64,000 nucleotides of DNA, from positions 1-64,000 of the forward strand of contig CAWAGQ010000011.1 in assembly GCA_963781585.1 (NCBI GenBank), written 5' to 3'. This DNA is from an uncultured Gemmatimonadaceae bacterium. GTDB lineage: Bacteria > Gemmatimonadota > Gemmatimonadetes > Gemmatimonadales > Gemmatimonadaceae. This document shows positions 1 through 62,788 of this stretch, in pieces. The first letter of the stretch is position 1. The number at the start of each line of letters is the position of its first letter. Below the pieces are notes generated by a model, which searched no databases, was not told where the DNA came from, and saw nothing but the letters and a program-made list of their open reading frames with translations. Both the position numbers and the translations under genes were made by a program.

Positions 1-66
1 GGGACTGCAGGAGTTGAAGCCCAGTACGGAGGAAGTGCCGCAGAAGAGGCCTAACGTTGCCATGTA

Positions 67-102
67 AGGCCAGAGGCCAAGAGGCCATGGGCCAAAGGCC
101 AT
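67..102. repeat. Degenerate heptamer tandem repeat (RGGCCAN)n
   Basis: AGGCCAG AGGCCAAG AGGCCAT GGGCCAA AGGCCAT; related arrays at 1913-1952 (inverted) and 31702-31750. Confidence 0.7.
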
Positions 103-157
103 AGGGACGGAGGCGAGCAACAACGGCTCGGCTGTTGGCGCCGCGGTCCGGGGGGCG

Positions 158-364
158 CTCGAGCGACTCGCGCGCGAGGCCGGCGCAACCGCGCGCGCGG
201 GGACACCCGCGGAAGCCGCGCGCGACGCGGACGCACTCCTGCTCGCCGTGCACTGGTCCCGCGTCGACGACGTGGTGAAGCAGGCTGGCGATCTCTCAGG
301 CCGGATCATCCTCACGTGTTCGCTGCCCATGAATGCGGACGACACCGCGCTCGTCGTCGGCCAC
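158..364 (+). pseudogene. Internal fragment of an NADPH-dependent F420 reductase / NADP oxidoreductase family gene
   Basis: Reads LERLAREAGATARAGTPAEAARDADALLLAVHWSRVDDVVKQAGDLSGRIILTCSLPMNADDTALVVGH; no N-terminal GxGxxG or start codon, and similarity is lost after ~364. Confidence 0.6.
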
Positions 365-446
365 GGCAAAGCAACCGCACGTCGCGTGCGCGACCTTCCT
401 GGGGGCGTGGTCTCGCCTGTCCCGGATGCGGCTTCGTGCGTTCCCA

Positions 447-1870
447 TCACCCTCGCCCGGAGTCTGCGCCGCCGGCGTCGGGGCGCCGCGCAACCGGGTC
501 CGTGGTTCGATCCACTGCCCGTGACAACCCCTCCGCCGCCACGTTCCGCACCCCCAACGACGTGGAGCCGAGGAACGATGGCCCCTCGCCCGTCGTGCCA
601 TCGCGCGGCCCCACCTTGCCGCCGCGCCGCAGCCACAGCTCGCGCGAATGCGTGAGGTCATCCAGAAACATCGCCTCCGCATCCGCGCCTAACGCGGCAT
701 CCTCGATCACCGCGTCCAGCTCGAAGTTGATCGTCATCCCCAGCGGGTTGAAGTCGGTCGACCCCACCCGCACCCAGCGGCCATCCACCACGCTGGTCTT
801 GGCGTGCATCATCTCCCCACGCCACTCCCAGATCCGCACGCCGTTCGCAGCAGCCGTGTGATACGAGCGCACCATGATGTTGCGCACCCAGAAGTGATCC
901 TACCGGCTCGGCACCAGCACCCGCACGTCCACGCCGTCGCGCGCCGCCCCCGCCAGCGCCTCGATCTCAGTACTCTGACGGCGCGAAGTAGGCGCTCGCG
1001 ATCCAGATCGACCGCTCGGCCGCCACCGCCTGCATCTGGAGCGCCCGCGACACCCGCAGCTTCCCCGGCTCGCCCTCGATGATCCCCACCAGCGACGGCG
1101 GATCGAACCGCGTGTTCAGGTACGAGGACTGCGGCGGCCGCACGAGCCGGCGATGGCCCCGCGGCGTCCGGCCCCACGCCCGCGCCCACATGTGCTCGAA
1201 CGCGTCGTGCATGTCCCGCACGGCGTCGCCCTCGATCAGCACACAGCGTGTCCCGCCACGGCGCGCGCCGTTTGCGCAGGATCGCCCTTCTTCCACTCCA
1301 CCCCGATCCCGATGCCGCCGGTCACGCCCCACTGCGCCCGTCCACTACCAGCATCTTCCGGTGATCGCGCGGCAGAAGGCCGAGCCAGCGCCGGAATCCG
1401 GGCGGGTTGAACATCCGGAACTCCACGCCCGCCTGCTGGATCCGGCGGAAGAACGAGCGCGGCGTGGCCAGCCGCCCGAACCAGTCGATCAGCATGCGCA
1501 CCCGCACGCCGCGCCGGGCCGCCTCGGTGAGCGCACTCCGCGAACGCTGGCCGACCTCGTCGTCGTGGTAGATGTAGCTGCTCGAAGTCCAGCGTGTCTG
1601 CGCCCCGTCGATGAGCGCCGAGCATCGCCTCGAACGTCGCCGTCCCGTTGCTCAGCAGCGTCACCCGGTTCCCGCCGAGACGTTCGCCGAGGCGATCCGC
1701 CACAGCGCCCGGGAGAACGAGGGCCGCGGCGTCTGCTGCTGAGCGGCGGCAAGCGGAGCGCCCGTGGCGGCGGGGCCGGTGCTGGCGCGGGCTGCTGCGG
1801 CGGCGGGATCGGTGCTGGCGCCTGCTGCGGCGGCGGGATCGGTGCTGGTGACGGCAGTGCGGTTGGACAC
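447..1870 (-). CDS. cls: Cardiolipin synthase-like phospholipase D family protein (ClsB-like), broken by several frameshifts
   Basis: Pieces in different frames: GNRVTLLSNG, RDHRKMLVVDG (HKD motif 1), IWIASAYFAP, MMHAKTSVVDG..VGS (HKD motif 2), NFELDAVIED; the N-terminus has STDPAAAA repeats. Confidence 0.8.
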
Positions 1871-1975: not shown

Positions 1976-2882
1976 ATGCTCTCCATCGATCTCACCGGCA
2001 AACGCGCCCTCGTCGCCGGCGTCGCCGACGACGGCGGCTTCGGCTTCGCCATCGCCAAAGCGCTGGCCGAAGCCGGCGCCACCGTCTGCGTCGGCACCTG
2101 GCCGCCCGCCCTCAACATCTTCCTCAACCTCATCGAACGCGGCAAGCTGGACGAGTCGCGGCGGCTCTCCAGCGGCGACCTCCTCGCGTTCGAGCGGATC
2201 TACCCGCTCGACGCCGCCTTCGATACGTCTGGCCGACGCCCCCGACGACCTGCGCGCCAGCAAGCGGTACAGGGACGTCGGCGATTTCTCCATCGAGGGG
2301 CTCGCCGGCCGCCTAACGTCGGACTTCGGCACCCCGGCCCTCGACATCATCGTCCACTCGCTCGCCAACGCCCCCGAGGTGAAGAAACCGCTCCTCGAAA
2401 CCTCACGGGCGGGATACCTCGCCGCCGTGAGCGTGAGCGCATACTCCTTGACCGCCCTGCTGCAACGGCTGGGCCCGCTCATGCGCCCTGGCGGGTCTGT
2501 CGTCTCCCTCACCTACATGGCGAGCGAGCGCGCCATTCCCGGCTACGGCGGCGGGATGTCCTCCGCGAAAGCGGCGCTGGAGAGCGACACCCGGATGCTG
2601 GCCTTCGAAGCCGGACGCACCTGGGGAATCCGCGTGAACACGATCTCGGCCGGCCCGTATGCATCGCGCGCCGCCAGCGCCATCGGCATCATCGAGCGAA
2701 TGGTGGACTACTGCCGTGCGAACTCGCCCCTTCCGGAGGCGCTGACGACCGCCGAGGTGGGATATGCCGCGGCATTCCTCTGCAGCCCGCTGGGCTCGGG
2801 CATGACCGGCACAACACTCTACGTCGACAAGGGCTACCATGCGATGGGCATGGCGGTCGCCACGGGGACCTCCACCGCCTGA
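1976..2882 (+). CDS. fabI: Enoyl-ACP reductase, plant/chlamydial-type FabI; one frameshift near 2226
   Basis: [68 protein letters not shown]; halves lie in ORFs 1079..3010 and 1947..2882. Confidence 0.9.
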
Positions 2883-4521: not shown

Positions 4522-6954
4522 ATGAACACGTTTCTTGGCCGGATTCTCCTTTCCGTCGTGGCGATTCCGCTCGTTCCGACCGCCGCCACCCAGTCCGCCG
4601 CCCTGCGCGGTTTCACCGCCCAGTCGACCGCGGCCGAGCGCGACTGGGAGGGGAAGTTCCGCGCCATCCCTGACACCGCGCGCCTCCGGGCCGCTCTCCA
4701 GAAGCTCTCCTCGCACCCGCACCACCTGGGCTCGCCTAACGACAAGGCCAACGCCGAGTGGCTGCGCGACCAGTTCACGTCGTTTGGCTGGGACGCCCGC
4801 ATCGACGAGTACCGGGTGCTCTTCCCCACGCCGAAGGAGCGCGTTCTCGAGCTGGTCGCGCCCACGAAATTCGTCGCCCGCCTGGAGGAGCCGACGCTGA
4901 AGGAGGATCCGACCAGCGGTCAGAAGGCGGAGCAGCTTCCCACCTACAATGCCTACTCGGCGGACGGAGACGTCACGGCGCCGCTCGTGTACGTGAATTA
5001 TGGCGTACCCGCGGACTACGACGAGCTGGATCGCCTCGGCATCACGGTGCGTGGTGCGATCGTGATCGCGCGCTACGGCGGTTCGTGGCGCGGCATCAAG
5101 CCCAAGGTGGCGGCCGAACACGGCGCGGTGGGGTGCATCATCTACTCCGACCCGCGCGACGACGGATACTTCCAGGGAGAGACGTATCCGGCCGGACCAT
5201 GGCGGCCGAAGGACGGCGTGCAGCGCGGGAGCGTGCTCGACATGCCGGTGGCGCCGGGCGATCCCCTCACCGTGGGTGTGGGCGCCACGGCCGACGCGCC
5301 GCGGGTCGATCGCAGGGATGCGCCCACCATCATGAAGATCCCCGTCCTGCCGATCTCGTATGGTGACGCCCAGCCGCTGCTGGCCGCGATCGGCGGGCAG
5401 GTTGCCCCGGATTCATGGCGCGGGGCGCTGCCCATTACCTATCACCTGGGCCCGGGGCCGGCACGCGTGCACCTGAAGCTGGCCTTCAACTGGGACCTCG
5501 TGCCCCTGTACGACGTGATCGCGACGCTCCCGGGCAGCGACTTTCCCGACGAGTGGGTGATCCGCGGCAACCACCACGACGGCTGGGTGAATGGGGCGCA
5601 GGACCCGCTCTCGGGACTGACGGCCGAGCTCGAGGAAGCACGCGCATTCGGCGAGCTGGTGAAGCAGGGCTGGCATCCCCGCCGGACGATCGTCTACGCC
5701 GCGTGGGACGGCGAGGAGCCGGCGCTGCTGGGATCCACCGAATGGGTGGAGGCGCACGCCGAGGAGCTGAGCCAGAAGGCGGTGATGTACCTCAACAGCG
5801 ACACGAACGATCGAGGCTATCTGGGGGTTGGAGGATCGCACTCGCTCGAGCGGCTGGTGAACCAGGTGGCGCGGGACATCGTCGACCCGGAGACGAAGGC
5901 GTCGGTGTGGCGGCGGATGCAGGCGGCCCGGATCCGGACCGGCGATGCCGCGCAGCGCCGGGAGGTGCGGGACGGGGGCGATCTCTCCATCTCGGCGTTA
6001 GGGTCGGGGTCGGATTACACGCCGTTCCTGCAGCACCTGGGCATCGCCACGCTGAACATCGGATACGGCGGCGAGGACGGCGGCGGCATCTATCATTCGA
6101 TCTACGATTCGTTCAACTGGTACACCCGGTTCGGGGACACGGCGTTCGTCTACGGGCGGGCGCTGTCGCAGACCGCCGGGACGTTCGTGATGCGGATGGC
6201 CGACGCCGATCTGCTGCCGCACGACTTCAATTCGCTGGCCGGGACGGTGCACGACTACCTGGGGCAGCTGAAGGCGCTGCGCGACGACATGGCGGCGCGG
6301 GCGGCGGAGACGAACCGGGAGCTGGACAACGGCGTGTTCGCCGCAACCGCCGATCCGCGGTTCCCGGAGAAGCCGCCGGCGCACGAGGCCGTGCCGCCGT
6401 TCCTGAACTTCGCACCGATGGACAACGCGGTGGACTCCCTCACCCGCGCCGCCTCCCGGTTCGAACGGGCCTACACCGCCGCGTTAGGCAGCGGGCACCT
6501 GGACCGGCCGGGAGAGGCGGCGATCAATGCGCTGTTGCGTTCCACCGAGCGCACACTGACCTCGCCGCAGGGGCTTCCGTTGCGGCCGTGGTACGAGCAT
6601 CTCCTCTACGCGCCGGGCTACTACACCGGCTACGGCGTCAAGACGGTGCCGTCGGTTCGCGAGGCGATCGAGCAGAAGGAGTGGCCGGCTGCCGATCGCG
6701 AGATCGTCCGGGTCGCGGACGCGCTGAACCGGGCCGCGGAGCAGATCGCGCGAACGGCGGACCGGCTGGACGCCCTGGCGGAGTCTGGAGGTCATGGACT
6801 CGTCATGAGCTATCAGATGAGCCAACGGGTATCGGCCATGGACTCCCTAGAGAGAAGTAATGCGCTCGCTCCGCAGGTGCCGGCCCGCCCTTGGCGCCGG
6901 CGTGGTCGCGCTCGCGGTCGCGAGGTGTGGACCGTCACCCGCACCGGCCGGTGA
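4522..6954 (+). CDS. M28 family glutamate carboxypeptidase II-like peptidase (PA and transferrin-receptor-like dimer domains)
   Basis: Signal peptide, VYVNYG..IVIARYG (PA), GNHHDGW, WDGEE, GSGSDY, YHSIYD, HLLYAPGYYTGY; the ORF end overlaps the next gene by 95 bp, so the true end is uncertain. Confidence 0.9.
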   Translation: MNTFLGRILLSVVAIPLVPTAATQSAALRGFTAQSTAAERDWEGKFRAIPDTARLRAALQKLSSHPHHLGSPNDKANAEWLRDQFTSFGWDARIDEYRVLFPTPKERVLELVAPTKFVARLEEPTLKEDPTSGQKAEQLPTYNAYSADGDVTAPLVYVNYGVPADYDELDRLGITVRGAIVIARYGGSWRGIKPKVAAEHGAVGCIIYSDPRDDGYFQGETYPAGPWRPKDGVQRGSVLDMPVAPGDPLTVGVGATADAPRVDRRDAPTIMKIPVLPISYGDAQPLLAAIGGQVAPDSWRGALPITYHLGPGPARVHLKLAFNWDLVPLYDVIATLPGSDFPDEWVIRGNHHDGWVNGAQDPLSGLTAELEEARAFGELVKQGWHPRRTIVYAAWDGEEPALLGSTEWVEAHAEELSQKAVMYLNSDTNDRGYLGVGGSHSLERLVNQVARDIVDPETKASVWRRMQAARIRTGDAAQRREVRDGGDLSISALGSGSDYTPFLQHLGIATLNIGYGGEDGGGIYHSIYDSFNWYTRFGDTAFVYGRALSQTAGTFVMRMADADLLPHDFNSLAGTVHDYLGQLKALRDDMAARAAETNRELDNGVFAATADPRFPEKPPAHEAVPPFLNFAPMDNAVDSLTRAASRFERAYTAALGSGHLDRPGEAAINALLRSTERTLTSPQGLPLRPWYEHLLYAPGYYTGYGVKTVPSVREAIEQKEWPAADREIVRVADALNRAAEQIARTADRLDALAESGGHGLVMSYQMSQRVSAMDSLERSNALAPQVPARPWRRRGRARGREVWTVTRTGR

Positions 6955-8608: not shown

Positions 8609-10059
8609 AGCGGATCGCGTCAGGCATTCTGGCGCTGTTGCTGGTGGTCGTGGCCATCTGCGGGGTGCGGATGGCGCGGCTGACCGCGTACGCCGTCGCC
8701 GCGCCCGCGGCCGATCCGGCGCTTGCCGGTACGTCGGCAGGCACGGACCATCTTGCCGGCGCGATTCGCTTTGCCACTGTTTCCACCCAGGATTCCGCCG
8801 GTTTCGACCCCCGGCCGTTCCTCGCGCTCCACGACTATCTCCGCACCGCGTTTCCACGGGTGCACGCCACGCTCACGCGCGAGGTGGTGAACGGCTACAG
8901 CCTGCTCTATACCTGGACGGGGAGTGACTCCTCGCTCGACCCGGTGCTGTTGATGGCCCACCTCGACGTGGTGCCGGTGGAGGACGGGACCGAATCGCTG
9001 TGGAAGCACCCGCCGTTCGGCGGCGAAGTGGCGGACGGTTTCGTCTGGGGCCGCGGGGCGATGGACGACAAGGGATCGGCGATCGCGATTCTCGAAGCCG
9101 TCGAGTCGCTGCTGGCGCGCGGCTTTCAGCCACGGCGCACGATCTACCTCGCCTTCGGCCACGATGAAGAGGTGGGCGGTGCGAACGGCGCCGCGCACCT
9201 GGCGCGGGTTCTGGAACAGCGAACGAGGCATCTGGCGTTTCTGCTGGACGAGGGCGGCGTGGTGAGCGACGGCGTCATCCCCGGAGTTTCACGCCAGGTG
9301 GCCCTGGTAGGGGTGGTCGAGAAGGCGAGCTTCAACGTGGAGCTCACCGTGCAGGCCGCGGGCGGGCATTCCTCCATTCCACCGCGGCACACCGCGGTGG
9401 GGACATTGAGCCACGCCATCGCCCGCCTCGAGGACCAGCAGATGCCGGCGCACCTAACGCCGGTGACCGAGCGGATGATGACGCTCCTGGCGCCGTACAT
9501 GGCCCCGGCGCGGCGGTTCTTCCTGGCCAATCTCTGGCTGTTTCGCCCCGTCATCGTGGCCGGCATGGTGGCTGATGAACGCTCGGCGGCGGTGGTCCGG
9601 ACCACGACCGCAGCGACCATGGTGAGCGGCAGCCCCAAGTCCAACGTCCTCCCCATCCGCGCCCGTGCCGTCGTTAATTTTCGCGTCCTCCCCGGCGAGA
9701 CAGGTGCTGACGTCCTGGCGCACGTTCGGCGCGTGGTGGACGACACCTCCGTCCGGATCGCCGCCGCCGGATCGGGAACCCCCTCACCCGTGGCGGATTA
9801 CCATTCGCCGGAATACGCGTTGATCGAGAAGACCATCGTCCAACTCTTCCCCAAAGCGGTTCCGGTACCATTCTTGATGGTTGGTGGCACGGACACCCGC
9901 CACTACGAGTCCCTGACCCGTAACGTCTTTCGTTTCAACCCCTTCGTGGCGACCCCGGATCTGATCGGGGGCGCGCACGGGACCAACGAACGGCTGCGAG
10001 CGGAAGACTTTGCCCGGGGGGCGCGCTTCTTCGCGCAACTCATCGAGAACGCGCAGTAA
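8605..10059 (+). CDS. M20/M25/M40 metallopeptidase (PM20D1/carboxypeptidase S-like)
   Basis: GTG overlaps the upstream TGA; LMAHLDVVP, WGRGAMDDKG, GHDEE, GGHSS, GGTD, HGTNE. Confidence 0.9.
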   Translation: MKRIASGILALLLVVVAICGVRMARLTAYAVAAPAADPALAGTSAGTDHLAGAIRFATVSTQDSAGFDPRPFLALHDYLRTAFPRVHATLTREVVNGYSLLYTWTGSDSSLDPVLLMAHLDVVPVEDGTESLWKHPPFGGEVADGFVWGRGAMDDKGSAIAILEAVESLLARGFQPRRTIYLAFGHDEEVGGANGAAHLARVLEQRTRHLAFLLDEGGVVSDGVIPGVSRQVALVGVVEKASFNVELTVQAAGGHSSIPPRHTAVGTLSHAIARLEDQQMPAHLTPVTERMMTLLAPYMAPARRFFLANLWLFRPVIVAGMVADERSAAVVRTTTAATMVSGSPKSNVLPIRARAVVNFRVLPGETGADVLAHVRRVVDDTSVRIAAAGSGTPSPVADYHSPEYALIEKTIVQLFPKAVPVPFLMVGGTDTRHYESLTRNVFRFNPFVATPDLIGGAHGTNERLRAEDFARGARFFAQLIENAQ

Positions 10060-10163: not shown

Positions 10164-12968
<2,805 letters not shown>

Positions 12969-13464: not shown

Positions 13465-14754
13465 TTATCGGCGTTCGGCCGTGAGCTCATGGCCCGCCAC
13501 CCGCGCGCACTCGGACAACACGGCGGCTCCGACGAAGATGCTCTCCTCTGCGGCGACGAAGCGTGACGAATGGGCCGGTATGACCTCGCCACCCTCCTCG
13601 CGTGCGCCGATGCGCAGAAAACACCCGGGCATCCGCTCGAGGTACACGGCGAAGTCTTCACCCCCCATGTTGGTGAGGCCGAACGGCACCAGGGAACCCG
13701 GGCCCAGCACGCGCTCGGCGGCACGGCGGGCCCAAGCGGTTTCGCGGGGCGTGTTCACCACCGGCGGGGTACCGTCGCCGAACGCGATCTCCGCCGACAG
13801 GCCGTACGCGGCAGCGACGGTGGTAGCGAGATGGCCGACGTGCTCGCGCAACGCGGCACGCACGTCCGGAACCATCGCCCGTAGCGTTCCACCGAGCACC
13901 ACCTGCTGCGGTATCACGTTAGGCGCCGATCCGCCATGCATCATCCCGATGGTGACGACGGCCGTGACCCCCGGGTCGAGCCGCCGGGCGACGATCGTCT
14001 GCAGCGCGGTGACGATCGCGGCCGCGCCCACGATCGGATCTGCACCCTCGTGCGGGCGGGCTCCGTGCGCGCCGTGTCCGGTGATCGTGACGGTGAACGT
14101 GTCCGACGACGCGGCCACCGCGCCGGGATCGGCGACCACCTGGCCGAGCGGGAACCGGCGGTCCACGTGGCCGCCGAAGATGGCGACGGCGTCCTCGAGG
14201 GCTCGCGAGTCGAGGATGACCCTCGCTCCCGCACCCACCTCTTCGGCCGGCTGGAGGACGATGAGAACGTCACCCGGCGCCGGGTTTCGTTTCAGCAGCA
14301 ACGCGGCCCCGACCGCCCAGGTGGCGTGCACGTCGTGACCGCAGGCGTGCATCACGCCGGGTGATTCGGACGCGAAGGGGAGACCAGTCTCCTCCTGAAT
14401 GGGGAGTGCATCGATGTCGCCACGAATGGCGAGGGTGGGTGCGCCCCCATGGCCGGGAAGGCGTGCCACGACGCCGGTATCCGCTATCCGGCGCACATCG
14501 CTCACCCCGGCCTTGCGCAGAAAGGCCTCGAGGCGCCCCGCCGTCGCCTCTTCCTTCCACGAGAGTTCCGGGTGGCGGTGGAGGTTGCGGCGCAGGTCGC
14601 GGAGCGACTCGATCTCCTCCGGCGTGAACTGCGTCCCGGGACCCTCCGCGACGCCGCCGGCCGGCCGTCCCGTATTGCTGACCGGCGCGGCTCCGGCCGC
14701 GGGTGACCGAGGGGTGCCATCCCGCTGAGTCTTCACCGGCGGATCGTCGCGCAT
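13465..14754 (-). CDS. M20 amidohydrolase (probable N-succinyl/N-acyl-L-amino acid hydrolase)
   Basis: LHRHPELSWKE, RGDIDALP, MHACGHDVH, QPAEE, GGEDF. Confidence 0.88.
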   Translation of the reverse strand: MRDDPPVKTQRDGTPRSPAAGAAPVSNTGRPAGGVAEGPGTQFTPEEIESLRDLRRNLHRHPELSWKEEATAGRLEAFLRKAGVSDVRRIADTGVVARLPGHGGAPTLAIRGDIDALPIQEETGLPFASESPGVMHACGHDVHATWAVGAALLLKRNPAPGDVLIVLQPAEEVGAGARVILDSRALEDAVAIFGGHVDRRFPLGQVVADPGAVAASSDTFTVTITGHGAHGARPHEGADPIVGAAAIVTALQTIVARRLDPGVTAVVTIGMMHGGSAPNVIPQQVVLGGTLRAMVPDVRAALREHVGHLATTVAAAYGLSAEIAFGDGTPPVVNTPRETAWARRAAERVLGPGSLVPFGLTNMGGEDFAVYLERMPGCFLRIGAREEGGEVIPAHSSRFVAAEESIFVGAAVLSECARVAGHELTAERR

Positions 14755-14764: not shown

Positions 14765-15892
14765 TCAGGGTTCGCCCACCGTCTCTTCGCGGACCGTGAG
14801 GTCCTCGATGCGGTCGCGGTCGATGCCGACACCAAGTCCCGGGCGATCGATGGGCACGTGGATGGTGCCGTGCTCGGTCATCATCCACTCGGGCGTGACG
14901 ATATCGCACGCCCAATAGCGCGCGCTGGGGGAGATGTCTCCCGGCTTGACGAAATTGGACAGCGAGGCGAGCGCCACGTTGTACGCGCGTCCGATGCCGG
15001 TCTCCAGCATCCCGCCACACCAGACCGGAATGCCGTTGGACTCGCAATAGTCGTGGATGGCGACCGACGCGGTGATGCCGCCCACCCGGCCCGGCTTGAT
15101 GTTGATGATGCGTCCGCTGCCCAGGCGGAGCATGTCCTGGGCGCGGTCGAGCGACGTGATCGACTCGTCGAGGCAGATGGGCGTCTGGAGACGCGCCTGG
15201 AGCTCGGCATGGCGGACCAGATCGTCGAAGGCGAGCGGCTGCTCGATCATCATCAGGCCCAGACGGTCGAGTTCCAGCAGCGGCTCGATGGTGTCGAGGG
15301 TGTAGGCGTTGTTGGCGTCGACCATCAGGGGGGCGTCGGGCCCGAGCGCGTCGCGGGCGGCACGCGCGTATTCCACGTCGGCCCCAGGTCTGATCTTGAT
15401 CTTGACCTTGCGGTAGCCCTCGTCGAGAGCGCGGCGCGCCGTCTCCACCAACGCTTCCGGGGTGGGCTGGATGCCTAACGAGATCCCGACTTCGATCTCG
15501 TCACGGGCACCGCCAATCAGTCGCGCCAGCGGCATGCCGAGGCGTTCGGCCTCCAGCCCCCAGATCCCCATCTCCACGGCCGCCTTCGCCATGTAATTGC
15601 CGCGGCAGTCCTGTTCCAGTATCGCGTGTACCTCGCCGGGGGCGGCGAGCGATCGAAACAGGACGCGTGGGGCCAAGTGGCGGATGATGGTGACCCACGC
15701 GCTGTCGATGGTCTCGGCCGAGTAGTTGGGATATTCCCCGGCGACACTTTCGCTCCAGGCGGTGGCGCCGCTGCCGTCGCGCAGCTCGAGCAGGGCAATG
15801 CGCCGCTCCGACACCACGCCCGAGGAGATCCGGAACGGTTCCCTGAGCGGCAGCCGGATTTCCCGCAGCGTGATGGCGACGACTTCGATCAT
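14765..15892 (-). CDS. menC: o-succinylbenzoate synthase / N-succinylamino acid racemase (NSAR/OSBS subfamily)
   Basis: Enolase superfamily: KVKIKIRPG, MVDANNAY, IEQP, ICLDESI, INIKPGRVGG, WCGGMLETGIGRA, PGDIS. Confidence 0.88.
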   Translation of the reverse strand: MIEVVAITLREIRLPLREPFRISSGVVSERRIALLELRDGSGATAWSESVAGEYPNYSAETIDSAWVTIIRHLAPRVLFRSLAAPGEVHAILEQDCRGNYMAKAAVEMGIWGLEAERLGMPLARLIGGARDEIEVGISLGIQPTPEALVETARRALDEGYRKVKIKIRPGADVEYARAARDALGPDAPLMVDANNAYTLDTIEPLLELDRLGLMMIEQPLAFDDLVRHAELQARLQTPICLDESITSLDRAQDMLRLGSGRIINIKPGRVGGITASVAIHDYCESNGIPVWCGGMLETGIGRAYNVALASLSNFVKPGDISPSARYWACDIVTPEWMMTEHGTIHVPIDRPGLGVGIDRDRIEDLTVREETVGEP

Positions 15893-40491: not shown

Positions 40492-40501
40492 CGACGCGCC
40501 G

Positions 40502-50903: not shown

Positions 50904-50904
50904 C

Positions 50905-53482: not shown

Positions 53483-54585
53483 GAGCCACCTCCACTGCCT
53501 AACGGTTTGTCGAGCAGCTTTCCGACGATCGCGCGGGTCTGCCGGGCGGCTCCCACCACCTGATCGGCCTTCAGTACCCGCAGCAGGTCCACGGTGAGCA
53601 GGAGCGATTTCCGGCGCACGCCGGCGGCGTCGCGCCGCCAGAGCAGGCCGGCGGTCCCGAGCGTCGTGACCCGCACCAGCGGCCCGCGGCCGATGCGGCC
53701 ATCAGCGTCGTACGCCAGCACCCACGACGCACCGAGGTGGTGCTTCCAGCCGCTGAACCACACGGTGAAGCCGCCCGTCTCGATCGACAGCGACTGCTTC
53801 TCCCCGATCCGGTTGTCCCGGCGGGCCACCTCGACGCCGGCGAACGGATGCAGGACCACCAGATCGACTCGCGACGGATGGAATCGAGCCTCGCCCGTCC
53901 GCGCGGTCCAGCCGCGGAGGAGGCGGTTCAGGACCAGCTCGTGCATCAGCTGCCCGGGACCGTTTGCCCGATAGCGTTCCCATTCCCGCGCCAGCTCGCT
54001 GATCTCCGCCAGCGCCCCTGGCACCGTCTCGAAATTGACACCGCCTAACAAGCGACTCACCGAGCGGCCGGCCCAGCAGAGGCCTTCGGCCTCGTCCCGC
54101 TCGAGCGAGTCCGACACGACCAGCCCCAGCGGTCGGGTCGTCGCATCGACCTGGAGAATGCGCCAGGCGCCGTTCATGTCCTGAAAGGGCTCGAACTGCA
54201 GATACTCGTGCTGGTGCAGCGCCGTGGCGCGGGCCGCGAGACTCACCTGCAGCACGCCGGGCAACCGATCGAGCACCTGGCCGAGTGCATCCTGGAACGT
54301 GTGGTCGAGCGCCGTGAACTGCGGTGTCGGTCGGCGGCGTTCGAGACTGTCGAAGGTCGTGGCGATATCGCGCTGGAGCGAGCGGAGCACGTCCATCCAC
54401 TGCCTGGCCGCAATGGTCTCGCCATAGCGGGCCTCGACCCGTGCGGGATGCAGCAGGACCGCCGACGAGGCAGCGCGTGGCGGTCCGGTGTTGCACGCCA
54501 CATCCACCTGCGCAAATGCGCTGCTCGATGCGCCGAGGAACAGCAGGACACCCGCACCGGCACGTCGCGCCGCCCGGGCCATCAT
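53479..54585 (-). CDS. Exported hypothetical protein
   Basis: Signal peptide ending SAFA; ATGA overlaps with both neighbours; beta-strand-rich C-terminal third. Confidence 0.7.
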   Translation of the reverse strand: MMARAARRAGAGVLLFLGASSSAFAQVDVACNTGPPRAASSAVLLHPARVEARYGETIAARQWMDVLRSLQRDIATTFDSLERRRPTPQFTALDHTFQDALGQVLDRLPGVLQVSLAARATALHQHEYLQFEPFQDMNGAWRILQVDATTRPLGLVVSDSLERDEAEGLCWAGRSVSRLLGGVNFETVPGALAEISELAREWERYRANGPGQLMHELVLNRLLRGWTARTGEARFHPSRVDLVVLHPFAGVEVARRDNRIGEKQSLSIETGGFTVWFSGWKHHLGASWVLAYDADGRIGRGPLVRVTTLGTAGLLWRRDAAGVRRKSLLLTVDLLRVLKADQVVGAARQTRAIVGKLLDKPLGSGGGS

Positions 54586-55875: not shown

Positions 55876-58369
55876 ATGCAGGTGCTTCAGCCGCTTCGCC
55901 ACGCCTGGAGATCGCTCCAGCGCACGCCGGCATTCACGCTCACCGCCACCACCACGCTCCTGATCGGCATCGGGGCGGCCGTCGCGACGTTCGCCGTGGT
56001 GAACGGGGTGCTGCTTCGGCCGCTTCCGTACGGCCATCCGGATCGCCTGGTGGGTGCGTGGCACGATCTCGCGCCCCTTGGGCTGAAGCACGTCCAGCAG
56101 ACGTCCGCCACCTACTTCACTTACCAGAAGCTCGCCCGCACCATCGAGGGCATCGGCGTCTACCAGGAGGGCGCGGTGAACGTGGCGCCTCCCGGCGACG
56201 CGTCGCAGCCTCAACGGCTCAGAGCCTCCTGGGTCTCGGCGACGGTGATGTCGGTTCTCGAGGCGCCGCCTGCCAGGGGGCGCGGATTCACGGCGGCGGA
56301 GGACCTTCCGAACGGGCCCGACGTCGTGATCATCAGCGACGCGCTGTGGCACAACGCGTTCGGCGGCGCTCCGCACATTGTGGGCCGCACCATGGACGTG
56401 AACGGGACCACGCGGGAAATCGTGGGCGTGATGCCGCCGACGTTCCGTTTTCCTGCCGCCGAGACGCAGCTGTGGCTTCCGCTGGGTCTTGATCCGGCCA
56501 GTCCGTTCCCCGGCGGGTTCAACTACAACGGCATTGCGCGCCTGAAGCCCGGTGTCACGGTGGCCGCGGCGCAGCGTGATTTCACCGCCGTGCTCCCGCG
56601 GATCGTCGAGCTGTCGCCGAACCTGGCGCCCGGTGTCTCGACCCAGATGCTGCTCGATCAGGCCAAGCCGACTCCGCTGCTGGTGCCGTTTCGACAGGAC
56701 ATCGTGGGCGAGTTCTCGGGGACCCTCTGGACGGTGGCGGCGGCGGCCGGGCTGGTGCTCCTGGTCGCCTGCTTCAATGTCGCGAATCTCATTCTGGTTC
56801 GTGCCGACAGTCGCCAGCGCGAGCTCGCGGTTCGTGAGGCGTTAGGCGCCGGGCGGCTGCGCGTGCTGGCGCACTTCCTGGCCGAGTCGGTCGTGCTGGC
56901 GACGGTGGCCGGTGCTGACGGGCCTGGCGGTGGCCTGGGTGGCGGTGCGGCTGCTGGTAGCGCGCGGCGCGGACGCAGGGCAGGGGGTGTCGATCCCCCG
57001 ACTCGCGGAGCTGGGGATTGACGCCAGGGCGGTGCTGTTCACGCTGGCGCTGGTGGTGCTGGTGGCTGCGGTATGCAGCGTGATCCCGGCGCTCCGCATC
57101 GACCGGGGGCAGCTGGCGACCGCGTTGCGCGAGGGGGGACGCACCGGCACCGCGAGTCGTCTGCAGCACCGCATCCGCGGCGGGCTGGTGGCCGGACAGA
57201 TCGCGCTGGCCCTGGTGGTGCTGTCGGGATCGGGTCTTCTCCTGCGGACGTTCCAGCGCCTGCACGACGTGCATCTGGGGTTCGACCCGGAGCACGTTGC
57301 CACGTTCTGGCTGTCGCTGCCGCGGGCGCGCTACGCGTCCGACACGGCGATCGTCCATTTCTTCTCGGAACTCCGTGCGCGCGTCACGTCATTGCCGGGA
57401 GTCCGCGCAGCGGGACTGTCGTCGCGGCTTCCGCTGCAGGGAAACGGGATGAACCAGAATCCCTTCTACGCTGAGGGCGACGTCTCGGCGGCGTCGAAGA
57501 TTCCGCCGTTGCAGATCTACACCACGGTGGATGACGCGTACTTCCACGCGATGGGGATTCCCTTGCTGGCGGGCCGCGGGTTCGACCGCGCCGATCTCCA
57601 GCGCCCGGACGAAGCGATCGTCAGCCAGCGCACCGCCGAGCAGTTCTGGAAGGACCCCACCGGCCGCGCCGCGTTAGGCAGGCGGTTCCGCGAGCTGCCG
57701 GGCGGGCACTGGCATACGGTGATCGGCGTGGTCGCCAATGCGCGCGACACGGCCATCGCTGCGCTCCCGTCACAGGTCGTGTACTTTCCGGAAGTCATCG
57801 ATCCGGACACCACGTTCAGCCAGACGTACCGCGCGATGGCCCTGGTGGTGCGCACCACGGGCGATCCGATGGCGGTCACCGGGCCGGTACAGCGGCTGGT
57901 GCGGGAGCTCGATCCCACCCTGCCCACGTTCGACATCCGGCCCATGACCGCGGTGGTGAGTGCCTCGGTAGCCCGCCTGTCGTTCATCATGCTCATTCTG
58001 GGCGCCGCCGCGGGGGTGACCCTGCTGCTGGGCGCCGTGGGGCTGTATGGGGTGATGGCGTACCTGGTCACGCTCCGCACCCGCGAACTGGGCGTGCGGA
58101 TCGCGCTGGGTGCGCAGCCGGATGCGGTGGCGACGATGCTCACGCGACAGGGGATGTGGCTGTCGGCGATCGGCATCGGCGGCGGCCTGGCGCTGTTCGT
58201 GGGCGTCGCCCGATTCCTGCGGTCGTTCCTCTACGGGGTGACGCCAACGGACCCGGTCACGCTCGGCGCGGCGTCGCTGATGCTGATGGCGATCGCGGCC
58301 CTGGCCAGCTGGATTCCGGCGCGGCGCGCATCGCGGGTGGACCCCGCGCACACGCTTCGGACGGAGTAA
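55876..58369 (+). CDS. Duplicated MacB/FtsX-type ABC permease (ADOP-like); frameshift near 56910
   Basis: LRHAWRSLQRTPAF, LVACFNVANL..RELAVREALGA, RELGVRIALGA, PARRASRVDP; split between ORFs 55876..57021 and 56912..58369. Confidence 0.85.
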
Positions 58370-59473: not shown

Positions 59474-59482
59474 GCCGGCCGC

Positions 59483-60241
59483 ATGCTGCGGGGACTCTGG
59501 CGACTCACCTGGCTCGAGATCCGGATCTTCGTCCGCGAGCCGCTGGGCGTCATCGGTACGGTGGGGGTGCCGGTCGTCGTCTTCCTGCTGCTGGGCCGGG
59601 TGGCCGGCCGCGACCTGACGCGAGCCGGCGAGCCGGACGTGCGCGGCTTCGTGCAGGTGGGACTCCCGGTCCTGGCGGCGGTGCTCATCACCATCAGCGC
59701 CGTACTGTCGCTGGTGACGATCATCTCGATCTACCGCGAGGGCGGGATCCTCAAGCGGCTGCGCGCCACGCCGCTGCCGCCCGCAGACGATCCTCACCGC
59801 CCACGTGCTGGTGAAGCTGCTGTTCACGGCGATCACCCTGGCCGTCATGGTGCTGGCCGGGAGACGCTACTATCCGGTGGGCGTCGCACGCGCCGCGTGC
59901 TCGCCTTCACCATGGCGCTGCTGATCAGCACGGTGAGCATCATGTCGCTCGGCTTCCTCATCGCCAGCGTGGTGCCCACCGCGCGATTCGCGCAGCCGAT
60001 CGGGGCGGCCATCCTCTATCCGATGGTCGGGCTGTCGGGCCTGTTCGTTCCTGTTGACGCAGCTGCCGCGGGCGCTGCAGGGCGTGGCGCGCGTCGCTGC
60101 CGCTCACCTACGCCGTGTCGCTGCTGGAGGGGATCTGGCGCGGGGGAACCTGGTCCGCGCATCTGGGCGACGTCGGCGGCGCTGGTGGCGACGTTCATCG
60201 TCTTCACCGCGATTTCGGCGCGGGTGTTCCGGTGGGAATGA
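59483..60241 (+). CDS. ABC-2 type permease; internal frameshifts
   Basis: IFVREP, YREGGILKRLRATPL, GLSGLFVP, ARVFRWE; hydrophobic segments switch frames. Confidence 0.8.
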   Translation: MLRGLWRLTWLEIRIFVREPLGVIGTVGVPVVVFLLLGRVAGRDLTRAGEPDVRGFVQVGLPVLAAVLITISAVLSLVTIISIYREGGILKRLRATPLPPADDPHRPRAGEAAVHGDHPGRHGAGRETLLSGGRRTRRVLAFTMALLISTVSIMSLGFLIASVVPTARFAQPIGAAILYPMVGLSGLFVPVDAAAAGAAGRGARRCRSPTPCRCWRGSGAGEPGPRIWATSAALVATFIVFTAISARVFRWE

Positions 60242-60253
60242 GCGTGCGTCCGG

Positions 60254-60949
60254 TCAATCTTCCTTCCATGGATTGGTGGCGAACACGGCGAGTTCCGGCC
60301 AGAGTGCCCGCCGGGGCATCTCGAGGGCCGCCATGATCGTCGCGGCGATATCGTCCGCGAACAGCTTGTTCGGATTGTTCCGGCCGGTGCGGCCGCCGAA
60401 CTCGGTCTGGACCTCGGACGGACAGACGCACACGACGCGAATGCTGTGCGGGCGCAGCTCTGCCTGCCAGCACTGACTGATCCCGCGCACCGCCCACTTG
60501 CTGCCACCGTACGCGGTCGCGCCGGGACCGCCCTTCATGCCGGACGTGGACGCGATGTTGATGATGTCGCCCTCCCCCTGCGCCTTCATCATCGGTACGA
60601 CGCGGTTGGTGATGTCGGTGAGGCCGAAGACATTGACGGCGAACATCGCGCGCATCGCGTCGAGGTCGAGCGCCCCGATCTCCCCGCGGTACGCGTACGC
60701 GGCGTTGTTCACGAGCACGTCGACGCCGCCCATGCGTTCGCGGCACGTGTCCACCGTTCGCGCGTTGTCCTCGCCGCTCGCGACGTCGGCCGTGAGGCCG
60801 TGTGCACCGGTCGCGGCCGCGACGCGCCCGATGCGCTGTACGTCGCGTCCGGTGAACACCACCTGGTGTCCGGCCGCGCGTGCGCGTTGAACCACGGCCG
60901 CGCCGATGCCCTGGCTGCCGCCGGTGACGAGAAAGCGACGGGTCTGCAT
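60254..60949 (-). CDS. SDR family oxidoreductase
   Basis: TGGSQGIG, LVNNAA, NIAS, YGGSK. Confidence 0.9.
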   Translation of the reverse strand: MQTRRFLVTGGSQGIGAAVVQRARAAGHQVVFTGRDVQRIGRVAAATGAHGLTADVASGEDNARTVDTCRERMGGVDVLVNNAAYAYRGEIGALDLDAMRAMFAVNVFGLTDITNRVVPMMKAQGEGDIINIASTSGMKGGPGATAYGGSKWAVRGISQCWQAELRPHSIRVVCVCPSEVQTEFGGRTGRNNPNKLFADDIAATIMAALEMPRRALWPELAVFATNPWKED

Positions 60950-61083
60950 GATCGAAGGGGTTGTGGTGTCGGTCGCGAGGAGGCGAGCGTGGAGACATAC
61001 CTTACTCCGCACGCCGCGCGGACGCGAGCGCGCGCATCCTGACGACCTCTGGACGCACGACTGACGGCGATTCACTCTCTCTC

Positions 61084-62788
61084 ATGCCCACGCGCCGCGA
61101 ATTCGTCGCACAGGCCGCGCTGTCGGCCGTCGGGTTGACGCTGCCGGCGCCCCTCGTGATGCAGCCGGTGGTCCGGCACACCAGGGTCGCGTCGCCGCCT
61201 GGCAGCTTTCTCAATCTGATCCGTTCCCCCGACGCGGTCATGGTACAGACCGGGACCGACTACCTGCCGCTGGCACGCGAAGGCGATGGCCAGTGGTCGA
61301 AGAGCGGGATCGGCGTGACGACGACCGGGCAAAGTGGCGCACTCCAGGTCGTGCTGCGCGCGCCTCACGAGTCGATCAAGCGACTGCATCTGCGGTGGCG
61401 CGGGGCGCTGGACGGGGTGCGTCTTCTGCTCGGCGACGCCTGGGAGCGAGGCTACGGTGATCTCGAATGGCGGGGCTGGGTGCCCGACCGTGTGATGCCG
61501 TGGTACGTGGCGACGTACGATGGATCGCTCACGCATGGGTACGGGGTTCGCACCGGCGCGCGGGCGTTGTGCTACTGGCAGGTCGACCAGCAGGGGATCA
61601 GCCTCTGGACGGACGTGCGGAGCGGCGGCGTCGGCGTCGATCTCGGCGAGCGCGGGCTCGCGGTCTGCGACGTGGTCTGCCGTGCGGGGCGCGAAGGAGA
61701 ATCCGCGTTCGCCGCCGTTCACGCATTCTGCGCTCAGATGTGCGCCAGTCCCCGGCTGCCGGCGCACCCTGTCTATGGAAGCAATGACTGGTACTGGGCC
61801 TACGGGAAGAACAGCGCCGAGTCGGTCATGACCGATGCGCGCCTTATCGTGGAACTGTCGCCGGCGGGCGAGAACCGGCCGTTCGTCGTGATCGACGATG
61901 GCTGGCAACCGGTACGCGGCGCGGACAAGGCGGATCAGGGACGGTGGGATCGCGGCAACGAGAAGTTCCCGGACATGCCCGGGCTGGCTGCCGGGATTCG
62001 TCGTGCCGGCGCGCGCCCCGGCATCTGGATCCGTCCGCTTCAGGCGGCCTCCGACGCGCCCGATTCGTGGCGTCTGCCGCGTGACCGTGGGGTCCTCGAT
62101 CCCACCGTGGCCGGGGTGCGGCAGAAGGTCGCCGATGACATCGCACGGCTCCGGGAGTGGGGGTTCGAGCTGATCAAGCACGACTACACGACGTTCGACA
62201 TCTTCGGCCGGTGGGGTTTTCAGATGGGCGCGGCGCTCACGCGCGACGGGTGGAGGGTTCGCGTCAGGCAGCGATCGCACCACCGCCGAGGTGATCGACG
62301 AGCTGTACGGCTCCATTCGCGGGTCGGCGGGGGAGAGTCTGGTCATCGGCTGCAACACGGTGAGTCATCTCTCGGCGGGGCATTTCGAGATCTGCCGCGT
62401 GGGCGACGACACCAGCGGCACCGATTGGGCGCGGACGCGCAAGATGGGGGTCAACTCGCTTGCGTTCCGCGGACCGCAGCACGGCGCCTTCTACGTGGCC
62501 GATGCCGACTGCGTGGGCGTCACCAGTGCACTGCCGTGGTCGCTCAATCGGCAGTGGCTCGATCTGCTGGCGCGGAGCGGGACCATGCTGTTCGTGTCGC
62601 TCGCTCCCGATGCGTTAGGCACGGAGCAGCGGCGTGACCTGAAGGACGCGCTGGCGCTGGCGGCGATGCCGCACCCGCTCGGCGAGCCGCTCGGCTGGCT
62701 GGGGTCGGTGTACCCGTCGCGGTGGCGGGTGGTGGGCGGCGAGCGGAGGTACGACTGGGTGGGGGCGGATGGGGCGGGGCCGCCGTGA
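61084..62788 (+). CDS. Tat-exported alpha-galactosidase-like glycoside hydrolase (GH27/36 clan); frameshift near 62258
   Basis: TRREFV Tat signal; YGSNDWY, VIDDGWQ, EKFPDM, PGIWIRP, LIKHDY, then IGCNT..RVGDDTSG in the next frame. Confidence 0.75.

Follow-up and report, generated by a model that had tools for sequence, protein, structure and literature searches.

To our knowledge, very few lineage-wide DNA words of the strength reported here are known, and those that we can name are the uptake sequences USS and DUS and the cyanobacterial HIP1, each of which opened work on the recognition of self-DNA in bacteria. The USS of Pasteurellaceae and the DUS of Neisseriaceae are short non-palindromic words that occur at hundreds of copies per Mb in equal orientations, confined to one lineage and common to its members. 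They reside in coding DNA in preferred reading registers with effects on the proteome, their outer positions are looser than the core, and they are spaced slightly more evenly than at random. For uptake sequences, a graded over-representation of mismatched forms is described in part of PMC1939737. The HIP1 element (GCGATCGC) is an octamer found within and between genes, for which passages of PMC5861425 give a 15-300 fold over-representation and a conservation between genomes beyond background that the authors attribute to selection, not to neutral replenishment. In excerpts of the literature on HIP1 its function is presented as still debated, with proposed links to transformation and type IV secretion.

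In this study, the octamer GCCTAACG was analyzed in the window, i.e. the whole stretch of 64,000 nucleotides from an uncultured bacterium that is Gemmatimonadaceae-like, as well as in related genomes. The octamer differs from its own reverse complement CGTTAGGC and shares with USS and DUS the copy number, the equal orientations, the confinement to one lineage, the placement in coding DNA with effects on the proteome, the looser outer positions and the slightly even spacing. It resembles HIP1 in length, in a similar fold over-representation, in its occurrence within and between genes and in its conservation between genomes beyond background (PMC5861425), whereas HIP1 is a palindrome containing methyltransferase sites and GCCTAACG is asymmetric. 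It looks like a new signal of self-DNA, in the manner of the uptake sequences known from Neisseria and Haemophilus or of HIP1, and its host phylum, the Gemmatimonadota, is a major but poorly studied phylum of soil bacteria. A preceding sequence-only reading of this DNA knew of no description of the word, and none was found by our literature search either.

Abundance and sites of the octamer in the window

The window contains exactly 21 exact copies of the octamer, 10 on the plus strand and 11 on the minus strand, along with five near copies in which the CCTAAC core is intact, and CCTAAC occurs 26 times in total (Table 1). Every coordinate given for these 21 exact and five near copies by the sequence-only reading was confirmed. 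In 100 dinucleotide-preserving shuffles of the window the mean number of copies was 1.07 with a maximum of 5, and none reached 21. The octamer also ranked by far first among the over-represented 8-mers of the window in a Markov comparison, with 0.57 copies expected by a Markov-2 and 0.72 by a Markov-3 model. Synonymous codon shuffling within genes (500 rounds) yielded 0.69 +/- 0.81 copies with a maximum of 4, as opposed to the 19 copies observed in 49 called ORFs, the gene calls being derived from a GC3 heuristic and Pfam matches and not from a gene finder. The enrichment survived this codon-aware null, which the sequence-only reading had proposed. The GC content of the window ranges from 0.654 to 0.705 in 4-kb bins. 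Some genes of the window are split by frameshifts located beside 5-base homopolymers, and the base-level quality of the window may therefore be imperfect.

The exact copies comprise 11 in the register NCG-TTA-GGC, four in CCT-AAC and one in CTA-ACG, in addition to two intergenic copies and three with an ambiguous reading frame. The sequence-only reading had listed 15 TTA, three CTA and four CCT-AAC cases with near copies included; the ranking of the registers stood, and the counts were borne out only partly (11, 1 and 4 exact copies). No conservation was visible in the flanks of the 21 exact copies, and in the pooled motif-rich sequence only a weak preference was detected at position -1 (G 7%).

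Table 1. Exact and near copies of the octamer in the window, with strand and coding context
Copy	Position	Strand	Context
exact GCCTAACG	49..56	+	reading frame ambiguous
exact	687..694	+	PLD-like fragment (447-899, -), sense strand GCG-TTA-GGC (A-L-G)
exact	2311..2318	+	reading frame ambiguous
exact	4734..4741	+	M28 peptidase-like gene, TCG-CCT-AAC-GAC (S-P-N-D)
near CCCTAACG, position 1 differs	5996..6003	-	
exact	6482..6489	-	M28 peptidase-like gene (shared with 4734 copy), GCG-TTA-GGC
near ACCTAACG	9452..9459	+	
exact	10651..10658	-	Ser/Thr kinase gene, TCG-TTA-GGC (S-L-G)
exact	12338..12345	+	Ser/Thr kinase gene (shared with 10651 copy), GTG-CCT-AAC-GCA
exact	13917..13924	-	M20 peptidase gene (-), GCG-CCT-AAC-GTG
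exact	15473..15480	+	enolase-superfamily gene (-), TCG-TTA-GGC
exact	17700..17707	+	kinase gene, CGC-CTA-ACG (R-L-T)
exact	18438..18445	-	kinase gene (shared with 17700 copy), TCG-TTA-GGC
exact	24344..24351	-	kinase gene (-), CCG-CCT-AAC-GTG
near CCCTAACG	24552..24559	+	
exact	28841..28848	-	HerA-like gene, ACG-TTA-GGC; motif at orthologous site in L001 and L014
exact	29906..29913	-	HerA-like gene, TCG-TTA-GGC; exact motif at orthologous site in 9 genomes of three clades
exact	37135..37142	+	ORF 36517-37434 (-), GCG-TTA-GGC
exact	37433..37440	-	intergenic or at ORF edge
near GCCTAACA, position 8 differs	38301..38308	-	
exact	39326..39333	+	intergenic
exact	53497..53504	+	ORF 53479-54630 (-), CCG-TTA-GGC
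near GCCTAACA	54043..54050	+	
exact	56840..56847	-	MacB-like permease ORF, GCG-TTA-GGC; TAG of the motif closes neighbouring frame
exact	57672..57679	-	MacB-like permease ORF, GCG-TTA-GGC
exact	62613..62620	-	frame ambiguous: TTA-GGC in ORF 62174-62788, GTT-AGG in ORF 60952-62637

Distribution among relatives and placement at the DNA level

In many relatives with independent assemblies the octamer ranks first among the 8-mers, as it does on the 1.1-Mb plasmid 1 of the cultured strain Gemmatirosa kalamazoonensis KBS708, where 777 copies were counted versus about 16 expected; the enrichment over expectation amounts to 20- to 50-fold in the window and in Gemmatirosa. A platform artefact is ruled out by its occurrence in relatives that were sequenced independently, as the sequence-only reading had required of a genuine signal. 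The motif is confined to some lineages of the Gemmatimonadaceae, a restriction that the sequence-only reading had missed; in these its density varies from 0.1 to 1.6 copies per kb. In total, 194 copies were counted in the motif-rich sequence (389,879 bp) versus a single copy in the motif-poor relatives (724,534 bp). The nearest relative of the window in the set, L001, carries one copy in 21.5 kb, and the enrichment was here either lost or never present. A comparison of orthologous positions revealed that 11 of 11 sites were kept in the three closest genome pairs, versus 38-54% of all 8-mers, and that nine of 16 sites were kept in pairs of intermediate distance, versus about three expected, i.e. 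beyond background in both cases. The octamer is actively maintained in several Gemmatimonadaceae lineages, including G. kalamazoonensis. With the motif present in a cultured strain, uptake, methylation and binding are directly testable, and the motif-rich and motif-free sister lineages provide a natural comparison for finding the reader gene. The octamer might moreover serve as a binning marker, for spotting foreign DNA in motif-bearing genomes and as a candidate aid for genetic tools in Gemmatimonadota.

The 203 copies detected in the window and 80 loci of related genomes are distributed over four open registers with 86, 38, 26 and 22 copies and over intergenic DNA with 31 copies, and inside genes none of the 203 uses either of the two frames that contain a stop. 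In motif-rich sequence, the motif accounts for 23.5% of the [SPTA]LG, 37% of the xPN[VADEG], 12% of the [CRSG]LT and 8% of the xVR[LPHQR] peptide contexts, versus 0-0.3% of these four contexts in motif-poor relatives; the respective shares on Gemmatirosa plasmid 1 are 24%, 55%, 6.9% and 5%. The share of TTA codons inside the motif, a measure suggested by the sequence-only reading, reaches 270 of 374 (72%) on this plasmid, and the motif holds 37 of its 79 TAA stops (47%) and 29 of its 175 TAG stops. On one replicon, the signal is accordingly strong enough to determine the majority of TTA codons and almost half of all TAA stops. Motif occupancy is independent of the transcribed strand. Per base, motif-rich loci contain the xPN[VADEG] context 2.4 times as often, and columns 93 and 391 of the HerA alignment are changed to Pro-Asn in the motif-bearing clades. 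No indels were observed at the motif sites of the codon-aligned HerA genes. The earlier statement that protein sequence cannot explain the motif is upheld by the four coding registers, the intergenic copies, the stop codons and the codon-aware null: the octamer is a signal at the DNA level, written in wherever the coding sequence permits, even if this requires rare codons and, at some sites, a change of amino acid.

With respect to orientation, the summed majority-strand count of 110 of 186 revealed no skew when compared with a null of 115 +/- 4, whereas 141 +/- 5.5 would be expected under a 75% skew. On the whole Gemmatirosa replicon 374 plus-strand and 403 minus-strand copies were counted, with a weak bias of about 55:45 by replichore that follows GC skew (calculated from the counts) and is no meaningful bias in orientation. 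The view of the sequence-only reading that the word is non-palindromic and lacks a strand skew of the Chi or KOPS kind is supported. Counts per 10 kb on Gemmatirosa plasmid 1 are Poisson-like (variance/mean 1.03), no 5'-3' bias of motif position was found within the genes of this plasmid, and the copies are spaced slightly more evenly than an exponential distribution of gaps predicts (CV 0.86-0.88). Close inverted pairs are not in excess, gaps of 50 bp or less accounting for 2.7% observed versus 3.5% expected. One-mismatch variants in motif-rich sequence are enriched 6-26 fold at the outer positions and 0-4.7 fold at the core positions; in Gemmatirosa, position 8 is the only relaxed position among the one-mismatch forms. 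The CCTAAC core is strict, with G strongly preferred at either end. Overall, the octamer is a lineage-specific, genome-wide signal that is read as double-stranded DNA.

Identity with the integron attC core

The consensus of the integron attC/attI core is given as RYYYAAC / GTTRRRY in passages of two publications (PMC5027507, PMC12901181). Within the octamer, GCCTAAC matches RYYYAAC, and the complement GTTAGGC matches GTTRRRY. Judged by its letters, the octamer is equal to the canonical integron attC core, a new observation of this analysis that the sequence-only reading had missed. The chance of finding RYYYAAC on one or the other strand of an arbitrary octamer was calculated to be about 0.004, before allowing for after-the-fact noticing. 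Gemmatirosa plasmid 1 encodes an integron integrase (TIGR02249, 423 bits versus a cut-off of 265) that adjoins 57 attC hairpins with covarying stems, i.e. a 57-cassette integron. The R'' ends of 21 of these 57 attC sites are exactly GCCTAACG, which is the commonest attC end, extra eighth base included, and 14 among the 50 located R' ends are exactly CGTTAGGC. This identity adds a testable link to cassette biology.

The dispersed copies were nevertheless rejected as attC sites, as they have no hairpin with L boxes and no adjacent integrase in the window and differ in their tolerance profile. A covariance model (R1) derived from 34 attC sites of Gemmatirosa detected no attC in the window or in the 80 loci of metagenome-assembled genomes, its sole match up to E = 1 being a borderline one in a chunk of plasmid 2 (L082; 16.9 bits, E = 0.93). 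In a Pfam scan of 67 window ORFs, none matched an integrase family. Throughout the 57 Gemmatirosa attC sites TAACG is invariant and position 2 varies (C in 32, T in 13 and G in 12 sites), whereas outside the array the variants GTCTAACG and GGCTAACG occur only seven and six times, respectively, versus 721 exact copies; only 57 of the 777 copies on the plasmid lie inside the array.

Candidate explanations

The reading that we prefer, tentatively, is that the octamer might reflect an uptake-like bias in DNA exchange among relatives that acts as a molecular drive, by analogy with the known uptake sequences. The reader would be a sequence-specific step in this exchange, with biased DNA uptake in natural transformation as the archetype and a biased packaging or export step having an equivalent effect; word-bearing alleles would be over-transmitted and then fixed by homologous recombination, and the filling of each reading register would be set by codon cost. 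The abundance, the DNA-level placement and the effects on proteins count for such a drive, as do the missing strand skew, the even spread, the pattern of maintenance and turnover and the outer-position variants. The graded mismatch forms of USS and DUS are matched in part, as the enriched variants of the octamer are those of the outer positions; the core one-mismatch forms are barely enriched, however, and a graded uptake drive might predict more. Further points against it are the missing excess of close inverted pairs, which in Neisseria form DUS terminators, and the conservation beyond background, which the authors of the HIP1 study used as an argument for selection. Unlike USS and DUS, the octamer has no extended flanking consensus and belongs to a different phylum, the Gemmatimonadota. 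The literature search yielded neither a report of natural transformation for the Gemmatimonadota nor a paper linking the phylum to uptake sequences, and none of the 67 window ORFs scanned matched competence-related Pfam families. The match to the integron core is not explained by an uptake-like drive and counts against it; it would be due to chance, or the drive would act on attC ends as well.

It is unlikely, though not strikingly so, that a chromosomal protein, such as a nucleoid protein or an orphan methyltransferase whose site is asymmetric, instead binds or modifies the word, which would be kept for chromosome structure, repair or replication and not for DNA transfer. The even spread across coding and non-coding DNA is consistent with such a role, and many asymmetric type IIL/BREX methylation sites have adenine at position 5 of 6, like CCTAAC. 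However, the octamer is not palindromic, its counts per 10 kb are Poisson-like, and modification systems normally have recognition sites that are neutral or avoided, in contrast to an enrichment of 20-50 fold. A repair bias of the very-short-patch type was discarded as a source, since one neighbour word alone cannot yield the enrichment; the C-to-T neighbours were too rare for comparison. Over-representation within the range of HIP1 and conservation between genomes are the two properties reported for HIP1 in passages of PMC5861425. Less probable still is a word read by a nuclease of the RecBCD, AddAB or AdnAB type that switches from degradation to recombination, whereby self DNA would be protected and repaired; this would presuppose, at the same low probability, that breaks are mostly two-ended in the lineage and hence need no replication-linked orientation. 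Like Chi and KOPS/AIMS, the octamer is a short asymmetric word that is the most over-represented octamer of its genome, its density of 0.3-1.6 per kb falls within the range of known Chi sites, and the weak bias on the Gemmatirosa replicon follows GC skew. Known Chi and KOPS words, in contrast, are strongly co-oriented with replication, the enrichment of the octamer far exceeds that of known Chi words, and E. coli Chi consists of common codons whereas the octamer imposes costly rare ones.

A direct relation to integrons appears similarly doubtful. In this case an integron integrase or a related tyrosine recombinase would use the dispersed words as R-box docking or crossover sites (G|TTAGGC) of the attG or attI kind, spread over the genome; in an alternative version, the words would have been spread through conversion by the integrase, with attC sites as the template. 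The consensus fit, the integrase beside the hairpins of Gemmatirosa and the exact R'' and R' ends are in favour of it, as is the ability of integrases to place cassettes at non-classical genomic attG sites, stated in part of PMC12901181 (citing Loot et al. 2024). On the other side, the dispersed copies lack attC structure, the strict positions differ, and a conversion of this kind would have spread both GTCTAACG and GGCTAACG, which are rare outside the array. Moreover, thousands of good crossover sites in essential genes should be harmful, and we know of no large-integron host that carries such a motif. It is equally improbable that the saturation of these genomes, in all frames, with the integron crossover core is other than coincidence; two routes could be considered if it were. 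In a docking route, the reader would be an integrase-derived or integrase-partnered protein and the dispersed words would be genome-wide sites for cassette entry or for the capture of host genes as new cassettes, which would be relevant to the unsolved question of where gene cassettes come from. In a self-recognition route, a new self-DNA system would have adopted the integron core, and cassettes circulating among relatives would count as self. An origin of the word without any biological signal, from codon or dinucleotide usage, a recurring protein motif, a mobile element or errors in sequencing and assembly, can be practically dismissed, given that all nulls expect about one copy or fewer, that the flanks are not conserved and the HerA sites are free of indels, and that the motif occurs in assemblies of varied origin (according to contig names and record titles) as well as on one finished isolate replicon, whereas motif-poor relatives are of similar GC content.

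The octamer in the window and in related loci

An exact search of the window detected 21 copies of GCCTAACG (reverse complement CGTTAGGC), 10 on the forward and 11 on the reverse strand, and every position at which the sequence-only reading had placed an exact copy was matched, as was that of each of its five one-mismatch copies retaining the core CCTAAC. By comparison, 100 dinucleotide-preserving shuffles of the window contained a mean of 1.07 and a maximum of 5 octamers, Markov-2 and Markov-3 models predicted 0.57 and 0.72 copies, and the octamer ranked first by a wide margin among the over-represented 8-mers. Both flanking G residues are present on 21 of the 26 CCTAAC hexamers of the window, and no conservation was detected in the window copies beyond the eight bases. 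The enrichment also persisted against a codon-aware null, as the sequence-only reading had required of a genuine signal, with 19 octamers observed in the 49 called ORFs of the window and 0.69 +/- 0.81 (maximum 4) in 500 synonymous-codon shuffles within genes. The genes were called by a GC3 heuristic along with a Pfam scan of 67 ORFs, so that the figures on register and occupancy are approximations; among the 21 exact copies, 11 lie in the register NCG-TTA-GGC, 4 in CCT-AAC, 1 in CTA-ACG, 3 in ORFs of ambiguous frame and 2 in intergenic DNA. The gene content reflects ordinary housekeeping and envelope functions, including three Ser/Thr kinases, peptidases, MacB-like permeases, a HerA-like ATPase, a phosphoketolase and an acetate kinase. 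The 14-kb octamer-free stretch listed in the feature table is not significant, as such a gap among 21 gaps at 0.33 copies per kb has a probability of about 0.2.

The HerA-like protein of the window served as query to collect 80 loci of 2-21.5 kb each (1,152,956 bp in total; best match 80% identity), mostly from MAGs labelled Gemmatimonadaceae, Gemmatimonadales or Gemmatimonadota, with many from Candidatus Eisenbacteria. At least two octamers were found in 22 loci, one in 5 and none in 53, and the octamer was the top 8-mer in many of them, for instance in L067 (23 copies in 16.5 kb) and L020 (21 in 21.5 kb). The pooled motif-rich sequence (21 loci and the window; 389,879 bp) contains 194 copies, whereas the motif-poor pool (724,534 bp) contains one; L001, L007, L008, L039, L070, L071 and L077 belong to neither pool, and L070 and L071 each carry five CCTAAC hexamers with mixed ends. 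The assemblies differ in origin, as judged from the names of their contigs and the titles of their records, and this excludes the platform artefact that the sequence-only reading had considered. In a tree of the single HerA gene the motif-bearing loci group into three clades (17, 4 and 4 rows), each well supported but connected by poorly supported deep branches, and the octamer consensus is identical in all three.

The cultured species Gemmatirosa kalamazoonensis KBS708 was reached by a protein search of a plasmid collection, and two 50-kb samples of its megaplasmids contained 29 and 30 octamers versus about 0.5 expected. Plasmid 1 (NZ_CP007129.1; 1,106,233 bp) is the sole Gemmatirosa replicon covered in full, plasmid 2 being covered by 50 kb. 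Plasmid 1 contains 777 octamers (374 on the forward and 403 on the reverse strand), corresponding to 0.70 per kb, where a Markov-1 model predicts about 16, and no other 8-mer of this replicon ranks higher. The copies are evenly distributed along genes, and their counts per 10 kb show a variance/mean ratio of 1.03 and are independent of GC content, while the gaps have a CV of 0.88 with very short gaps mildly under-represented. Since plasmid 1 lacks a HerA-like gene, Gemmatirosa could not be placed on the HerA tree.

Maintenance of the octamer and its effect on coding sequence

In the codon-aligned HerA genes every octamer occupies one of six alignment sites, each common to several genomes and most to more than one clade. 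At the Ser-Leu-Gly site corresponding to window position 29906 the leucine is encoded by TTA in 15 motif-bearing genomes, nine with the exact octamer and six differing in the last base alone, and the commonest codon combinations of the other genomes contain CTC, CTG, CTT or TTG, but never TTA. Octamer sites were kept beyond the 8-mer background at orthologous positions, the conservation that the sequence-only reading had proposed to look for: the three genome pairs of highest similarity (87-91% identical in DNA) have preserved 11 of 11 motif sites in either partner, compared with only 38-54% of all 8-mers, and three independent mid-distance pairs have kept 9 of 16 sites versus about 3 expected. 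As many other sites are lineage-specific, the word is both maintained and turning over. Where maintenance has ceased it decays to background, as in L001 (CAVXFN010000004.1), the nearest relative of the window in the set (80% HerA identity) and a member of the same clade, which contains a single octamer in 21.5 kb, located at HerA codon positions equal to window position 28841. Comparing L001 with the window therefore offers a helpful natural contrast in tracing the gene of a putative sequence-specific reader of the word.

The octamer is a DNA-level signal overriding codon preference, as the sequence-only reading had claimed. Intergenic DNA accounts for 31 of the 203 copies in the window and the 80 loci, a share similar to the 14% of sequence left uncalled, and each of the four open registers is used as well, with 86, 38, 26 and 22 copies. 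Occupancy, defined as the proportion of instances of each amino-acid context that the octamer encodes, is independent of the transcribed strand and peaks where the required codons are least rare.

Occupancy of amino-acid contexts by the octamer
Context	Motif-rich loci	Motif-poor loci	Plasmid 1
[SPTA]LG	23.5%	0.2%	24%
xPN[VADEG]	37%	0%	55%
[CRSG]LT	12%	0.3%	6.9%
xVR[LPHQR]	8%	0%	5%

The genes of plasmid 1 contain 510 copies compared with 18.9 +/- 3.9 under synonymous shuffles. With respect to the fraction of TTA codons residing in the motif, a measurement suggested by the sequence-only reading, 270 of the 374 TTA codons of plasmid 1 are part of an octamer. Even stop codons are supplied by the word, in 66 called genes of plasmid 1 (37 of 79 TAA and 29 of 175 TAG codons). 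Moreover, the octamer also reshapes proteins: the context xPN[VADEG] is 2.4 times more frequent per base in motif-rich loci, and two of the six HerA sites specify Pro-Asn in motif-bearing clades, with Ala/Ser-Asn/Ser elsewhere.

The CCTAAC core is strict in the MAG clades, in which the end variants ACCTAACG, CCCTAACG and GCCTAACA are enriched 25-, 16- and 26-fold relative to motif-poor relatives, versus 0-4.7 fold for core variants. In Gemmatirosa the first G is near-obligatory and relaxation concerns the last position only, plasmid 1 containing 77 copies of GCCTAACA outside its integron compared with 721 exact octamers; this is a mild lineage difference and not another word. An origin by very short patch repair was rejected, as the window shows no depletion of one-mismatch neighbours (48 copies versus 42 expected); counts of C-to-T neighbours are too low for a test of repair bias.

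The Gemmatirosa integron and candidate explanations

Following the over-represented words of plasmid 1 led to an array of 57 repeats at 810-856 kb, all on a single strand and spaced 0.35-3.3 kb apart. Roughly 95 nt in length, each repeat forms a hairpin that combines strongly covarying stems with unpaired spacers and bulged bases. The array is adjoined by an integron integrase gene (TIGR02249; 423 bits, cut-off 265), which shares its strand with the cassettes, and GTTAGCC near position 856,555 likely represents the attI crossover. The IntegronFinder 2.0 paper (PMC9024848) had previously referred to this large integron. A search of the integron region in L098, a piece of plasmid 1, yielded no Rfam match at gathering score.

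The octamer is a lineage-restricted, actively maintained, strand-symmetric and evenly spread word with a strict core that is costly to coding sequence, and such a word would imply a sequence-specific reader of double-stranded DNA that acts regardless of transcription and replication. Uptake sequences, which act through a molecular drive of biased uptake and recombination (as described in PMC1939737), share this footprint, and an uptake-like bias in DNA exchange ranks highest as a tentative explanation. The footprint is also shared by HIP1, whose function is described as still debated (PMC5861425); a HIP1-like chromosomal signal under selection ranks next and appears rather unlikely. An unskewed Chi-like signal is improbable. 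In agreement with the lack of strand skew noted by the sequence-only reading, no locus has an orientation bias, the summed majority-strand count being 110 of 186 compared with 115 +/- 4 under the null and 141 +/- 5.5 for a 75% skew. The whole of plasmid 1 shows a weak strand bias, about 55:45, which changes sign together with the GC skew. Gene orientation and the excess of G on one strand of the word would be expected to produce a bias of this magnitude, and Chi- or KOPS-type signals are therefore not supported.

Equally improbable is a tie of the dispersed octamers to an integron or recombinase. The general core consensus of attC and attI sites, RYYYAAC/GTTRRRY (as given in PMC5027507 and PMC12901181), is matched by the part GCCTAAC/GTTAGGC of the word, a match with a chance of about 0.004 in an arbitrary octamer on either strand, uncorrected for post hoc noticing, and in the Gemmatirosa array 21 of 57 attC left ends are exactly GCCTAACG and 14 of 50 locatable right ends exactly CGTTAGGC. 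However, the array holds only 57 of the 777 plasmid-1 copies, of which 38 lie in attC ends and 19 in the bodies of cassettes; the density in these bodies is 0.47 copies per kb versus 0.68 elsewhere, and the Pfam scan of 67 window ORFs gave no integrase-family match. Moreover, attC ends tolerate changes at position 2 (C 32, T 13 and G 12 among the 57 of the array) that are rare in the dispersed word. The common attC variants GTCTAACG and GGCTAACG number only 7 and 6 elsewhere on plasmid 1 and are thus not dispersed over the genome, by which spread through attC-templated conversion was rejected. The dispersed copies were also rejected as attC sites, as the attC covariance model detected none in either the window or any of the 80 MAG loci, its sole match up to E = 1 being a borderline one in L082, the chunk of plasmid 2. 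The probability left by these four explanations, led by the uptake-like bias, falls to something hitherto undescribed. In line with the sequence-only reading, which knew of no description of the word, a search of a paper library yielded no paper pairing the octamer with a term beginning with Gemmatimon; Gemmatimonadetes was nowhere in it paired with 'uptake sequence', and broader searches returned nothing relevant.

Additional repeats and gene features

Strong 8-mers of eight loci, considered as other 'dialect' words in motif-poor relatives, were found to belong to short tandem arrays or to a 171-bp tandem repeat and were discarded, the remaining 8-mers being GC-rich and modestly enriched only. 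The 7-9-base arrays are unrelated to the octamer, and those of L071, L072 and L029 form inverted pairs. With respect to the apparently split genes of the window, 5-base homopolymers are present in three of the four overlap zones read, and the genes might be either pseudogenes or the result of assembly indel errors; the octamer was rejected as their cause, as the frame changes lie elsewhere, beside homopolymers.

Coordinates of features in the window, the related loci and plasmid 1
Feature	Sequence	Coordinates	Strand	Remarks
PLD-like gene	Window	447-1651	-	Apparently split over three frames
HerA-like protein (query)	Window	28780-30309
Octamer-free stretch	Window	39334-53496		14 kb; phosphoketolase and acetate kinase genes inside; GC slightly lower
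MacB-like permease gene	Window	55822-58369	+	Apparently frame-split
ABC ATPase gene	Window	58385-59618	+	Apparently frame-split
DUF5131 (PF07505) gene	Window	63073-63915	+	Right edge; E = 9e-86; neighbours beyond window end
Tandem array, 7-9-base units	L071	6633-6716
Tandem array, 7-9-base units	L072	7644-7742
Tandem array, 7-9-base units	L077	14862-14911
Tandem array, 7-9-base units	L029	16130-16299
Tandem array, 7-9-base units	L031	9262-9298
Tandem array, 7-9-base units	L054	12591-12695
171-bp tandem repeat, seven units	L060 (Candidatus Eisenbacteria)	6268-7296		Palindrome CAGCACGTGCTG in each unit
Complete integron, 57 attC sites	NZ_CP007129.1	810,292-857,786		L098 ~20,200-50,000 and L099 1-17,800 (plasmid-1 pieces)

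Further strongly over-represented words of Gemmatirosa are GGACTGAA/TTCAGTCC (120 copies) and CTTCAGTC (124 copies) in plasmid 1, as well as AGTCCCGAG with 15 copies in L082, the sample of plasmid 2, which suggests a possible second repeat family.
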